NCBI GenBank assembly: GCA_036496555.1
Contig: DASXKY010000069.1
Location: forward strand, 1-58,962
From: Burkholderiales bacterium
GTDB taxonomy: Bacteria > Pseudomonadota > Gammaproteobacteria > Burkholderiales > SG8-39
Length of the DNA stretch: 58,962 nt
Direction of reading: 5' to 3'
Under the pieces are notes generated by a model, which was given only the letters and a program-made list of their open reading frames with translations, was not told the DNA's origin and searched no databases. Positions 33,373 to 52,310 of the stretch are shown piece after piece. Positions within the stretch are counted from its first letter, which is position 1; each line of letters opens with the position of its first letter. A program made the position numbers and the translations under genes.

Positions 33373-34122
33373 ATGAAGCAGGGGACCGAGCAGGACAAGG
33401 GGGCTGCAGCGGTGCGCATCGCCGCGCTCGCCAAGTGTTACGGGTGCGAAACGGCGCTCGCCGGCGTCGACCTGGAGGTGGCGCGGGGCGCCGCTTTCGG
33501 CCTGATCGGCGCCAACGGCGCGGGCAAGACGACGCTGATCAAGTGCATGCTCGACCTCTGCGCCGCCGACCGCGGCGAGGTGGAGATCTTCGGCATCGCT
33601 TCGAAGCTGCCGCGGGCGCGGGCCAGCCTGTCCTATATCCCGGAGCGCTTCTCGCCGCCGCACTACCTGCGCGGCGGCGAGTTCCTGCAGCACATGACGG
33701 TGCTCGCGGGCGCAGCCTACGACGCGGGCCGGGCAGCGCGGGTGCTCGCCGAGCTCGAGCTCGACGCCGACGCGCTCGGCCGCCCGGTGCGCACGCTGTC
33801 GAAGGGCATGGCACAGAAGCTCGGCCTTGCCGCCGGCTTCCTCGCCGAGCGCGCGCTGTACGTCCTCGACGAGCCGATGAGCGGGCTTGACCCCGCCGCG
33901 CGCGTGGCGGTGAAATCAGTGCTGCGCCGGCTGGGTGCCGAGGGCCGGACGCTGTTCTTCACCTCGCACGTCCTCGCCGACGTCGAGGAGCTGTGCTCGG
34001 CGATCGCCGTGCTCGACCTCGGGCGCGTGCGCTTTTGCGGCGCGCCGGGCGAGCTGCGCAGCCGCTACGCAGAGCCCGACCTCGAACGGGCCTACATAAG
34101 GTGCATCCGTGAGCCGTCCTGA
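33373..34122 (+). CDS. ABC transporter ATP-binding protein (orphan ATPase, first gene of the pilus-locus operon)
   Basis: ATG 33373. Walker A GANGAGKTT, signature LSKGMAQKL, Walker B LYVLDEPMSGLD, H-loop FFTSHV. No permease is adjacent. The 3' end overlaps the next gene by 14 nt. Confidence 0.85.
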   Translation: MKQGTEQDKGAAAVRIAALAKCYGCETALAGVDLEVARGAAFGLIGANGAGKTTLIKCMLDLCAADRGEVEIFGIASKLPRARASLSYIPERFSPPHYLRGGEFLQHMTVLAGAAYDAGRAARVLAELELDADALGRPVRTLSKGMAQKLGLAAGFLAERALYVLDEPMSGLDPAARVAVKSVLRRLGAEGRTLFFTSHVLADVEELCSAIAVLDLGRVRFCGAPGELRSRYAEPDLERAYIRCIREPS

Positions 34123-35515
34123 AGGGGGAAAGCCGGCGCTCCTGCTGGTCGACGACGACCCGCTCATCACCGACACGCTCGCCTTCGCGCTCGGTCCGCA
34201 CTTCGAGGTGTTCGCCTGCGACTCGCGCGCTAACGCGGTGGCGCTGCTGCGCCAGCTGCCCGACGCGCCGCGCCTGGCGCTGGTCGACCTCGGCCTACCG
34301 CCCTCGCCGCACATGCCCGACGAGGGCTTCGCGCTGATCGGCGACCTCCTCGCGCACGCGCCGGGCATGAAGATCTTCGTGCTCTCGGGACAAAACGACG
34401 CGGCGAACGCGCGCCACGCGCGCGCGCTGGGCGCCTTCGAGTTCATTGCCAAGCCGGCGGATCCGGCGCTGATCCACAAGCAGCTCGGCCGCGCGCTCGA
34501 GGTGCCTGCGGCCGAGGAGGTCGACCTGGTCGGCGCGAGCCCCGCGCTCGCCAAGCTCAAGAACCAGATCGCGCAGTTCGCCGCCGCGCCCTACCCGGTG
34601 CTGATCGAAGGCGAGTCGGGCAGCGGCAAGGAGCTCGTCGCGGCCAACATCCACCGCCTGTCGCCGCGCGCGAGCCGCCCCTACCTCACGCTCAACTGCG
34701 CGGCGATCTCGCCGACGCTGGTCGAGCCGACGCTGTTCGGCTACGTGAAGGGCGCGTTCACCGGCGCGCAGGGCAACAAGGCCGGCTACTTCGAGGACGC
34801 GCAGGACGGCACGCTGCTGCTCGACGAGATCGGCGAGCTGCCGCTCGAGCTGCAGGCGAAGCTGCTGCGCGTGCTGGAGAACGGCGAGTACCAGCGCGTC
34901 GGCGAGACGCAGAGCCGCACCTCGCGCTGCCGCGTGATCGCCGCCACCAACCGCGACCTGCGCCGCGAGGTGAAGAAAGGCTCGTTCCGCGCCGACCTCT
35001 ACCACCGGCTGTCGGTGTTCACGCTGAGCGTGCCGCCGCTGCGCGAGATGGACGGCGACAAGCGCGCCCTGCTCGACTACTTCCGGCGCCGCTATGCCGA
35101 CCGCGCGGGCGCCCAGCCCTTCGAGCTCGACGAGGCCGCCGCGCGACGCTGGCAGGCCTACGAGTTCCCCGGCAACGTGCGCGAGCTGCGCAACATCGTC
35201 ATCCGCCTCGCCACCAAATACGCCGGCCAGCGCGTCTCGCCCGCCGACCTCGAGGCGGAGTTCGACCTCGAGCTCGAAGGCGACCCGGCCGCGACGGCCG
35301 GCGCGGCGTCCGCGAGCTCGATCCTCGAGCAGGCGACGCGGCTCCTCGAGCGCGGCGGCGCCTTCAGCCTCGACGAGACGCTGAAGGCCTGGGAGCGCGC
35401 CTACATCGAGGCGGCGCTGCGCCTGACGCGCGGCAACGTCAGCCAGGCGGCCAAGATGCTCGGCGTCAACCGCACCACGCTCTACAGCCGGATGAGCTCC
35501 GGCGAGGAGAAGTAG
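34109..35515 (+). CDS. sigma-54-dependent response regulator (REC + AAA+ + Fis-type HTH), NtrC family, PrsR/PilR-like
   Basis: Receiver LALVDLGLPPSPHMPDEGF, Walker A GESGSGKE, sigma-54 contact loop GAFTGA (KGAFTGAQG), C-terminal HTH NVSQAAKMLGVNRTTLYSRM. Confidence 0.9.
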   Translation: MSRPEGGKPALLLVDDDPLITDTLAFALGPHFEVFACDSRANAVALLRQLPDAPRLALVDLGLPPSPHMPDEGFALIGDLLAHAPGMKIFVLSGQNDAANARHARALGAFEFIAKPADPALIHKQLGRALEVPAAEEVDLVGASPALAKLKNQIAQFAAAPYPVLIEGESGSGKELVAANIHRLSPRASRPYLTLNCAAISPTLVEPTLFGYVKGAFTGAQGNKAGYFEDAQDGTLLLDEIGELPLELQAKLLRVLENGEYQRVGETQSRTSRCRVIAATNRDLRREVKKGSFRADLYHRLSVFTLSVPPLREMDGDKRALLDYFRRRYADRAGAQPFELDEAAARRWQAYEFPGNVRELRNIVIRLATKYAGQRVSPADLEAEFDLELEGDPAATAGAASASSILEQATRLLERGGAFSLDETLKAWERAYIEAALRLTRGNVSQAAKMLGVNRTTLYSRMSSGEEK

Positions 35516-35517
35516 CG

Positions 35518-51569: not shown

Positions 51570-52259
51570 ATGAACAAGACCCAAAAAGGCTTCACGCTCG
51601 TCGAGATCGCGATCGTGCTGGTGATCATCGGGTTGCTGCTCGGCGGCATCCTGAAGGGCCAGGAGATGATCACGCAGGCGAAGATCAAGAACGTGATGGC
51701 CGACTTTTCCGGCATCTCCGCGGCCTACCACGGCTACCAGGACCGCTACCGTGCGATCCCGGGCGACGACCCGAACGCGGGGACACGCTGGACCACGGCG
51801 CCCGTGGCGGTTCCCGGCACCGGCGACGGCATCGTCGGCGGCACCTACAACGCCGCCTGCCCCGCCGTTCCGGCGGCGGGCGATCCCGAGTCATGCAAGT
51901 TCTGGGACCACCTGCGCCGCGCGGGATTCGTCGCCGGCAACGGCGGCCAGCAGCCGTTCAACGCGCTCACCGGCATTATCGGCGTGCAGACCGGCGACGG
52001 CGCCGCTGCGCCGTCGGCCACAATGCTCGACGGCGCCGGCGGCCCGGGCTTCGTCGGCCTGATCATGTGCTCGGCGAACCTGCCCGACAAGGTCGCCATC
52101 GCGGTCGACACGCAGATGGACGACGGCATCGCCGGCAAGGGCAGTGTGCGCGGGCTGCTGCAGGCGGCGCCCAACCCGGGGATCGGCGCAGGGCAAGTGG
52201 CGACACCGGCCTACGCGGAGACGTCGAGCAACATCTACGTGATCTGCCGCGCGCTGTAA
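51570..52259 (+). CDS. type IV pilin / pseudopilin (probable major subunit, MshA-like)
   Basis: Short leader MNKTQKG/FTLVEIAIVLVIIGLLLGGIL (Gly-1, Phe+1, Glu+5). RBS GGGGGAG 9 nt upstream. The listed ORF start 51492 would cover the promoter and is rejected. Confidence 0.88.
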   Translation: MNKTQKGFTLVEIAIVLVIIGLLLGGILKGQEMITQAKIKNVMADFSGISAAYHGYQDRYRAIPGDDPNAGTRWTTAPVAVPGTGDGIVGGTYNAACPAVPAAGDPESCKFWDHLRRAGFVAGNGGQQPFNALTGIIGVQTGDGAAAPSATMLDGAGGPGFVGLIMCSANLPDKVAIAVDTQMDDGIAGKGSVRGLLQAAPNPGIGAGQVATPAYAETSSNIYVICRAL

Positions 52260-52281
52260 GAACGAAGCATCTCTAGAGAAG

Positions 52282-52310
52282 AAGCCCGCTGCGGCGGGCT
52301 TTTTCTTTTT
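52282..52310. terminator. rho-independent terminator after the pilin gene (shared with the convergent antiporter gene)
   Basis: AAGCCCGC-tgcg-GCGGGCTT followed by TTTCTTTTT. Confidence 0.8.

Follow-up and report, generated by a model that had tools for sequence, protein, structure and literature searches.

Contig DASXKY010000069.1 of a Burkholderiales bacterium (assembly GCA_036496555.1), all 58,962 nucleotides of which were analysed here and are called the window below, carries a type IV filament (T4F) locus of 16 densely packed genes at positions 33373–52259. These genes probably encode a surface pilus related to the mannose-sensitive haemagglutinin (MSHA) pili, tied to a sigma-54 two-component pair and to a split ABC-2 transporter. 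The DNA is about 70% G+C, so third-position G+C was used together with open reading frame (ORF) maps to call the genes. Five of the proteins have no Pfam or NCBIfam family and are named here after their lengths in amino acids (aa): p509, p202, p136, p567 and p224. The genes and features of the locus are as follows (the strand is given as + or −, TM stands for transmembrane, and domain matches are followed by their E values where these are given):

33373–34122, +: ABC transporter ATPase, DrrA/NodI/GldA-like, which opens the putative 12-gene operon (ABC_tran 2.9e-20)
34109–35515, +: sigma-54-dependent response regulator with receiver, AAA+ domain with GAFTGA, and Fis-type helix-turn-helix (Response_reg, Sigma54_activat 5.5e-65, HTH_8)
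35518–36975, +: ExeA/MshM-type AAA ATPase with TM segment, Pro-rich linker and SPOR-like periplasmic tail (AAA_22 3.9e-27)
37010–38824, +: MshL-like lipoprotein secretin of the outer membrane (Secretin 6.8e-32)
38838–40250, +: bitopic tetratricopeptide repeat (TPR) protein in an MshN/TadD-like position (TPR_11, TPR_19, TPR_2)
40272–41981, +: MshE/PilB/GspE-type extension ATPase with MshEN N-domain (T2SSE 2.2e-125, MshEN 1.5e-13)
41986–43191, +: inner-membrane platform protein of the GspF/PilC/MshG family (T2SSF 4.4e-50, two repeats)
43200–44729, +: p509, predicted fusion of PilM fold, TM segment and periplasmic alpha-beta domain (AlphaFold2 and Foldseek; no Pfam/NCBIfam match)
44726–45334, +: p202, bitopic, PilO/GspM-like in topology only (alignment of orthologues)
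45331–45741, +: p136, secreted, PilP/GspC-like in position only (alignment of orthologues)
45738–47441, +: p567, pilin-like protein without Glu5, candidate tip pilin or adhesin (orthologue N-termini)
47432–48196, +: 254-aa prepilin, minor pilin, N-terminus GFTLTE (N_methyl 4.1e-07)
48193–49938, −: polytopic sensor histidine kinase, H-box THDIKN (HATPase_c 3.5e-08)
49969–50736, +: ABC-2-type permease of 255 aa with about 6 TM segments (orthologues match ABC2_membrane_2/3)
50736–51410, +: p224, 224 aa, TM-anchored and TPR-like, third component of the ABC module (TPR-like segment by profile)
51411–51446, +: two tandem candidate enhancer palindromes (upstream activating sequences, UAS) TGTCR-N6-YGACR, 20 bp apart (motif scan)
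51497–51511, +: sigma-54 promoter TGGCAT-N5-TTGC, 59 nt 5' of the pilin ATG (motif scan)
51570–52259, +: major prepilin, 229 aa, N-terminus MNKTQKG/FTLVEIAIVLVIIGLLLGG... (N_methyl 9.2e-08)

The 12 plus-strand genes between 33373 and 48196 follow one another with spacings of −14 to +34 nt (with the start codons chosen here), and the stop/start overlaps, ATGA at 44726 and 45331 and GTGA at 45738, were checked directly. To the 3' side of this run lie the minus-strand kinase gene, the permease gene, the gene for the anchored protein p224 and, after an intergenic region of 159 nt in which the sigma-54 promoter is located, the gene for the major pilin. This arrangement had been reported in a preliminary description made from the letters and ORFs alone, and its genes were reproduced here; profile searches of the ORFs against Pfam and NCBIfam likewise bore out its ABC_tran, response regulator, AAA_22, Secretin, TPR, T2SSE/MshEN, T2SSF, N_methyl and HATPase_c assignments. 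The stop codons of the convergent 254-aa pilin and kinase genes overlap by 4 nt (48193–48196), which leaves no space for terminators, and a spacer of 30 nt (49939–49968) separates the divergent genes for kinase and permease, so that their promoters have to lie within coding sequence. Simple scans for sigma-70 promoters and terminators returned nothing beyond chance.

A scan of one genome per species gave 80 such loci, all from uncultured Burkholderiales or Betaproteobacteria and mostly from soil metagenome-assembled genomes (MAGs). When 18 window proteins were compared with these loci by tblastn, the 16 genes were found in identical order and orientation wherever the contig was long enough, so that the neighbourhood comparison proposed in the preliminary description came out in favour of a co-conserved set. 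Synteny alone is weak evidence here, because the housekeeping flanks, mlaF and kef, are often conserved in the clade as well. The ABC ATPase gene is kept in the 13 loci that have no mlaF, and the pilin gene is kept where kef is absent. Clustered at 50% identity, the p509 family has 2136 members, and for 806 of these clusters E is ≤ 1e-30. The window was detected in soil metagenome runs; a metagenome scan with a more diverse p509 alignment returned the same clade only (60–79% identity) and added no diversity, and tblastn of p509 against a plasmid collection gave no match.

Eleven distant loci, whose p509 proteins are 26–30% identical to that of the window, were reached through a remote member of the p509 family. 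They have in common an 11-gene core in the order ExeA-like ATPase, secretin, TPR protein, MshE, GspF, p509, p202, p136, (large pilin-like protein), pilin, pilin; one is without the ExeA-like gene. The core stands by itself in Sulfuricella denitrificans skB26 (L081) and in L170. It is accompanied by the ABC module in L082 (a Desulfobulbaceae-like MAG), L084, L165, L166, L168 and in part L169, and by a sigma-54 response regulator and polytopic kinase in L083 (a Propionivibrio MAG), L167 and probably L171. Both modules are present in the window's clade only, and the two core-only loci and the three regulator-bearing ones are free of ABC-module genes. Thus the earlier claim that the ABC and two-component genes are wired to the pilus locus is supported for the clade, where they are fixed, and the same genes recur elsewhere, but outside the clade they are optional modules. 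In L165 a second, divergent MshE/GspF pair (1–1803, minus strand) lies directly upstream of the ABC ATPase gene, which suggests two related filament systems side by side.

The best NCBIfam model of the secretin is MshL (TIGR02519), with 236.7 bits narrowly under the cut-off of 250.2, while GspD and PilQ score 157.5 (cut-off 351) and 92.9 bits (cut-off 284), respectively. Its lipobox is kept in 41 of 42 orthologues. The extension ATPase (569 aa; median identity in the clade 90%) matches both PF05157 and PF00437 and carries the cyclic di-GMP (c-di-GMP) motif NF053729 at 60.3 bits, above the cut-off of 38; its N-domain aligns with the c-di-GMP domains of Vibrio cholerae MshE (5htl) and Thermus PilF. 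It therefore has the c-di-GMP-binding MshEN domain of the MSH class, a domain that is also present in some PilB/PilF proteins. Against the curated models it reaches 526 bits for GspE (cut-off 630) and 513 for PilB (675.7), and the 401-aa platform protein reaches 299.6 bits for GspF (424). The candidate equivalents of MshM and MshG match at family level, in AAA_22/ExeA-type and T2SSF domains. MSH systems occupy a single locus that never includes a prepilin peptidase (PMC6668835), and mshA, mshE, mshG and mshL, together with mshM, are the mandatory genes of the class, the others being accessory (Denise et al. 2019 model). The components described here are contiguous, and a peptidase was detected neither in the locus nor in the subset of window ORFs that was searched; the earlier report of no peptidase in the window holds to that extent. 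Its statement that no PilT-type retraction ATPase is present agrees with our failure to find a second T2SSE-family ATPase in the window.

The ExeA/MshM-type ATPase (485 aa) has a single TM segment at residues 278–296 and scores 216.7 bits against TIGR03015 (cut-off 324.5). The SPOR-like tail that had been ascribed to it is a sub-threshold match (E = 0.0019; 18.9 bits, cut-off 21), with a further weak SPOR match in the L082 orthologue, while the AAA_22/ExeA-type assignment is firm. The 470-aa TPR protein has a cytoplasmic N-terminus, a TM segment at 146–164, a Pro/Ala-rich linker and a periplasmic TPR domain; the T2SSB profile does not match its N-terminus, so the GspB-N label given to it previously is without sequence support. 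These two proteins are likely assembly helpers of the secretin.

The three proteins that follow the platform protein are not recognizable by family models. The AlphaFold2 model of p509 (predicted local distance difference test score, pLDDT, 67) has an actin-like N-domain, a long TM/coiled helix and a C-terminal alpha-beta domain, and the top Protein Data Bank (PDB) neighbours of its N-domain in Foldseek are the PilM proteins of three species (5eoy, 2ych and 3jc8_M). By its modelled fold p509 is a PilM-PilN fusion of the GspL or MshI type, and the PilM-like reading proposed earlier for this protein gains support, of an indirect kind, from the model. p202 combines a TM segment and a coiled coil with a C-terminal domain that has an invariant LLHE..DL motif and two Cys, and it matches GspM weakly (E = 0.0039); p136 carries the conserved motif GRLFFTPxERxxLD and a beta-rich domain in addition to its signal peptide. 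Searches of PDB sequences with profiles of both proteins that included the distant orthologues gave nothing meaningful, nor did p202 orthologues against Pfam. For this reason we do not call them PilO and PilP: these names, used in the preliminary description, are compatible with topology but homology was undetectable in PDB and Pfam, and we rejected them. p509 and the small periplasm-facing proteins p202 and p136 stand in for the alignment complex, PilMNOP or GspLMC, of other machines.

There are three pilin-like genes in the window, encoding p567 and the 254-aa and 229-aa proteins, as had been said before; no prepilin N-terminus was found in the window beyond those of the two N_methyl pilins. 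The gene for the 254-aa pilin is kept in all loci, and the N-terminus of its product resembles GspH and GspG. GspG and GspH are the best models for the pilin N-termini, GspG with 27.8 bits (cut-off 88.9). The 229-aa major pilin, which has its own promoter, is nearly invariant at its N-terminus across all distant loci and variable in its C-terminal part. p567 is the fastest-evolving gene of the locus (median identity 33%); in its orthologues the N-terminus QRG/AALIL... has no Glu5, and 8 Cys are invariant and 3 more nearly so. Its AlphaFold2 model (pLDDT 83.7; predicted template modelling score, pTM, 0.79) begins with a long helix and has no neighbour among PDB structures at E ≤ 0.001, so a GspK-like fold is unsupported; the arrangement of the modelled head domain may be new. 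PilK/GspK homologues without Glu5 are apical subunits of type IV filaments, and CpaL, of about 600 aa, is a precedent for a large apical pilin without this residue (PMC13533445). Because p567 also has no Glu5, we regard it, from its N-terminus, as a candidate tip pilin or adhesin.

The response regulator scores 342 bits against NtrC and 338.3 against PrsR (TIGR02915; cut-off 502.6), both under cut-off. The kinase, with six or more TM segments and a HATPase_c domain, matches PrsK (TIGR02916; 71.5 bits, cut-off 300) over residues 358–568 only, that is, in the catalytic core. Neither protein is a PrsK or PrsR equivalog by these models, and with the regulator equally near to NtrC and the kinase matched in its core alone, the earlier opinion that the pair is closer to PrsK/PrsR than to PilS/PilR is not established. 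A PEP-CTERM/exosortase regulatory module was rejected, as the model scores are far under cut-off and the cis elements are at the pilin gene.

These cis elements are distinctive. TGGCAT-N5-TTGC at 51497–51511 is the sole exact sigma-54 promoter match in the window, and GGCAY-N5-TTGC or a near variant is located 45–73 nt 5' of the pilin start (the spacer varies) in 40 of 41 clade sequences, which confirms the promoter proposed in the preliminary description. Likewise, the candidate UAS palindromes TGTCAGCGATCCGACG and TGTCGGAATCCTGACG, which lie immediately 3' of the p224 stop codon, are the only two matches to TGTCR-N6-YGACR in the 59-kb window. They are of the NifA/NtrC-like type (TGT-N10-ACA; phased sites TGT-N10-AC(A/G)). 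In 39 of 40 sequences a proximal GTC-N8-GAC site starts 65–69 nt 5' of the −24 GG, and in the remaining one the distance is 56 nt; an exact distal copy is present 20 bp further 5' in 26 of the 40. A sigma-54 promoter and palindrome precede the major pilin gene in the regulator-bearing loci L083 and L167 as well, and they are absent in the five distant loci examined that are without the two-component genes. The presence of the regulator pair and that of the promoter and UAS track each other near-perfectly. Since promoter and UAS occur only where the pair is present, and since a linked polytopic kinase, an NtrC-family regulator, a promoter and UAS are the elements of PilS/PilR-type regulation, we infer that the pair exerts PilS/PilR-like control of the major pilin. 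The PilS/PilR pair responds to pilin in the inner membrane, and the sites of PilR, TGT-N11-AGA, are similar to those of NifA (PMC6058289).

Several further observations concern regulation. A class III nucleotidyl cyclase gene (PF00211) is situated beside the kinase gene in L083 (17512–18783), L167 (14661–15962) and L171 (8082–8480), which hints at a cyclic-nucleotide input in the lineages that have the two-component pair and no ABC module. In L169 a different two-component pair, a 203-aa receiver plus HTH_8 regulator without AAA+ domain and a 358-aa kinase, separates the p224 homologue from the major pilin gene (16451–18131), which suggests that pilin regulation was recruited independently there. 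In many metatranscriptome runs from soil, sediment and freshwater, 4–13% of the 31-mers of the pilin region (51400–52300) are present; these probably represent the conserved pilin N-terminus of relatives.

The ABC module consists of an ATPase, a permease and p224, with the ATPase and permease genes about 16 kb apart in the window. The best NCBIfam models of the ATPase are DrrA, NodI and GldA, all under cut-off. The ABC-2 nature of the permease, asserted in the preliminary description, is secured through its orthologues, seven of eight of which match ABC2_membrane_2/3 (best E = 8.4e-08), the window copy itself giving E = 0.012. p224 has no Pfam match, and its profile matches designed consensus TPR proteins in the PDB at residues 81–109. 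The permease and p224 genes are always adjacent and are directly 5' of the major pilin gene in six of the 11 distant loci. Four of the six ABC-bearing distant loci have the ATPase (L082, L084, L165 and L168), a count in which the DNA upstream of the L166 locus was outside the stretch read; it is located at the 5' end of the locus or, in L084, directly after the pilin gene, so that permease, p224, major pilin and ATPase genes are contiguous there. The window's ATPase is 51–54% identical to those of L082, L165 and L084, its permease 38–43% to those of L082, L165, L166 and L084, and its p224 49–56% to the distant orthologues; the response regulator and kinase are 60–62% and 41–42% identical, respectively, to those of L083 and L167. 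Thus the modules are better conserved across loci than the core platform protein. From its observed linkage and by analogy, the ABC-2 transporter would be a dedicated accessory module of this filament family. A second complete ABC-2 pair is encoded on the minus strand upstream of the mla operon (an ABC2_membrane permease at 28160–29092 and an adjoining ORF at 28909–29781); as that pair is complete, the ATPase encoded at 33373 is not a component that it lacks.

The locus had been called the only accessory-looking block of the window, but this description does not fit. Its G+C and skew are those of its flanks, and in Betaproteobacteria, including Sulfuricella (L081), it occupies the same slot, in the order mlaFED, locus, kef, kdsD, kdsC, lptCAB, rpoN. 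In the window, 52310–58960 holds kef (minus strand), kdsD, kdsC, lptC, lptA, lptB and rpoN, in the same order as in L081 and L167. A conserved chromosomal slot implies that the block is ancestral, and a mobile or accessory island is rejected on this ground and on composition. The window's rpoN (57671–58960) runs off its end; it places a sigma-54 gene 5.4 kb from the sigma-54-dependent pilin promoter. Elsewhere in the window, an MHYT-domain hybrid kinase gene (9278–11221, minus strand; MHYT, HisKA, HATPase_c and receiver domains) has housekeeping neighbours, namely genes for pyruvate dehydrogenase E1, cytochrome b, a DegP-like protease, a 3-hydroxybutyrate-oligomer hydrolase, and HisA-like and MurA-type proteins.

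Taken together, the data favour, with a probability of roughly two in three, a complete, chromosomally fixed MSHA-like T4F machine that most likely builds a surface pilus for attachment. The core of the preliminary description, an MSHA- and type II secretion system (T2SS)-like machine tied to a sigma-54 pair and a split ABC transporter, is supported by the co-conservation of the genes, by the recurrence of the modules and by the tracking of promoter and UAS with the regulators. In such a machine the lipoprotein secretin would be the outer-membrane channel, and c-di-GMP bound by the ATPase would license polymerisation, as in V. cholerae MshE. p567 and the 254-aa minor pilin could prime assembly, after which the 229-aa pilin would make the shaft; prepilin peptidase and any retraction ATPase would be supplied by genes outside the locus, as is the case for Vibrio MSHA. 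The polytopic kinase, which by analogy with PilS/PilR might speculatively be a sensor of inner-membrane pilin, would phosphorylate the sigma-54 activator, and this would bind the two phased TGT-N10-AC(A/G) sites about 85–105 nt upstream of the transcription start, which is expected near 51522–51524, and activate the major pilin gene from its sigma-54 promoter. If Myxococcus PilGHI is a guide, the ABC-2 module may be needed for pilin handling or pilus assembly.

A number of findings weigh against the MSHA-like pilus. None of the curated equivalog cut-offs for MshL, GspD/E/F/G or PilB/PilQ is reached, and the best NCBIfam scores of the ATPase, the platform protein and the pilin N-termini are to Gsp models. 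Homology of p202 and p136 to PilO, GspM or PilP went undetected, all carriers of the full 16-gene version are uncultured, and in L169, where permease and p224 are present, about 10 kb upstream of the anchor gene was read and contained no ATPase gene. The part assigned to the ABC module is drawn from gene linkage and analogy, and a pilus cannot be separated from a T2SS-like pseudopilus by sequence alone. The latter, in which folded proteins would be driven through the secretin by a short pseudopilus in the periplasm, is therefore the rival that deserves the most attention, though we think it unlikely. It would account for the scores just mentioned (GspE 526 and GspF 299.6 bits, and GspG/GspH for the pilin N-termini), for an ExeA-like ATPase whose tail resembles a peptidoglycan-binding domain, as is known from the Aeromonas T2SS, for the GspL architecture of p509 (actin-like domain, TM segment, periplasmic domain), for the weak GspM match of p202 and for a large Glu5-less pilin-like protein, which recalls GspK. 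However, the Gsp equivalog cut-offs (GspD/E/F/G) are all missed widely, the secretin is far nearer to MshL (236.7 bits) than to GspD (157.5), a GspC with its HR and PDZ domains is missing, and there are three pilin-like proteins rather than five. The major pilin has 229 aa against about 140 in GspG, its strong sigma-54 promoter of its own and its variable C-terminal part fit an abundant exposed fibre, and no candidate substrate gene is linked in any locus. Nor do the findings fit a type IVa pilus (T4aP), with PilB and PilQ under cut-off, PilM fused in p509 instead of separate PilM/N/O/P proteins, and no second T2SSE ATPase in the window. Type IV filaments are functionally versatile (PMC6668835), and relatives of the locus are present in Desulfobulbaceae-like and sulfur/iron-cycling Betaproteobacteria, so a role in DNA uptake or extracellular electron transfer instead of adhesion might be entertained. 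We consider it very improbable, since no ComEA, ComEC, DprA or cytochrome gene is linked in any locus, the pilin is long (229 aa) and not of the short Geobacter type, and attachment agrees better with an ATPase gated by c-di-GMP and with a tip protein that is large and variable.

The ABC and two-component genes could also be mere neighbours with other functions, for example envelope transport beside mla, or PEP-CTERM or exopolysaccharide control, and be kept in place by shared ancestry. The often conserved mlaF/kef flanks, which make synteny weak evidence, the absence of both modules from some relatives with an intact core, and the best or near-best scores of kinase and regulator against the PrsK/PrsR models all speak for this. 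Nevertheless such a coincidence is improbable: the modules recur at the same positions in spite of core identities of 26–30%, other contexts and a different phylum-level lineage, the four genes are contiguous in L084, the pilin gene has promoter and UAS in step with the presence of the regulator pair, the ATPase is kept where mlaF is lost, and a separate complete ABC-2 pair is present elsewhere in the window. A bolder view, which we hold only tentatively, is that the locus represents a separate, unnamed T4F family beside or outside MSH and T2SS, ancestral to Betaproteobacteria and abundant in soil, that is defined by the p509/p202/p136 platform, a three-pilin set with a giant Glu5-less pilin and an ABC-2 module integral to pilin delivery or assembly. 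To return to the MSHA-like machine, what is described here is a common and well-conserved variant of a well-known machine type and involves no new principle.

The locus is very common, as the 2136 p509 clusters, the 80 species-level genomes and its presence in many soil metagenomes attest, and for soil ecology it would be a likely c-di-GMP-gated attachment organelle of abundant uncultured Burkholderiales. Its modular states (core, core plus ABC, core plus two-component pair, and both) are a natural experiment on add-on functions. The cross-phylum linkage of ABC-2 and major pilin genes bears on why Myxococcus pili need PilGHI, and the near-perfect tracking of regulators with promoter and UAS provides a clean, testable regulatory model. 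We found no study of this system in the literature on msh genes outside Vibrio, Aeromonas and Shewanella or on Betaproteobacteria.

Of the known systems the MSHA pili of Vibrio cholerae and Shewanella are the nearest. They share with our locus its single-locus organization without a peptidase or retraction ATPase in it, an MshL-like secretin (by its best model), a candidate MshM-type ATPase, an MshN-like TPR protein, an MshE-type ATPase with c-di-GMP domain and a GspF-type platform protein as candidate MshG. The Vibrio msh order is I-J-K-L-M-N-E-G-F-B-A-C-D-O-P-Q, whereas the order here is M-L-N-E-G-(platform)-(pilins), a difference to which the preliminary description had already rightly pointed. 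Unlike in MSHA, the platform proteins p509, p202 and p136 match no named family and are not recognizable as MshI, MshJ or MshK, and three pilin-like genes stand against the MshB/A/C/D/O/P/Q set, about seven plus MshQ. Further differences are the TM segment and SPOR-like tail of the MshM homologue, a separate sigma-54 promoter for the major pilin, and the added ABC-2 and two-component modules.

The ExeA-like ATPase resembles Aeromonas ExeA/ExeB in being an AAA ATPase with a TM segment and a peptidoglycan-binding-type tail and in having a bitopic partner, but the tail is SPOR-like (at sub-threshold level) and not PG_binding_1, and the partner has no T2SSB match. Of the T2SS more generally, the fused architecture of p509 is like that of GspL, and the lack of Glu5 in p567 recalls GspK. 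The Prs/PEP-CTERM proteins provide the best models for the kinase core (PrsK), the TPR protein (PrsT) and the ExeA-like ATPase (TIGR03015) and a near-best one for the response regulator (PrsR); on the other hand, PrsT is matched at 50.6 bits (cut-off 312), the others are also far under cut-off, and the genes here lie inside a putative pilus operon.

With Pseudomonas aeruginosa PilS/PilR the locus has in common a polytopic kinase, an NtrC-family activator and a sigma-54 pilin promoter, with upstream sites of the TGT...ACA/AGA type known for PilR (PMC6058289); the kinase core here is nearest to the PrsK model, and the Pseudomonas genes are located beside a T4aP locus. In Myxococcus xanthus, whose T4aP genes include the order pilS-pilR-pilA-pilG-pilH-pilI, PilGHI is a three-gene ABC transporter encoded beside the pilin gene and required for piliation (PMC3724824, PMC6060248). 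That T4aP system has separate PilMNOPQ, PilB/T/C and PilD proteins, and the ABC ATPase gene here is split off by 16 kb. The two nevertheless agree in that a sigma-54 pair controls the major pilin (in our locus, by inference) and, as judged from composition and linkage, in that an ATPase, an ABC-2 permease and a third protein are linked to the pilin.

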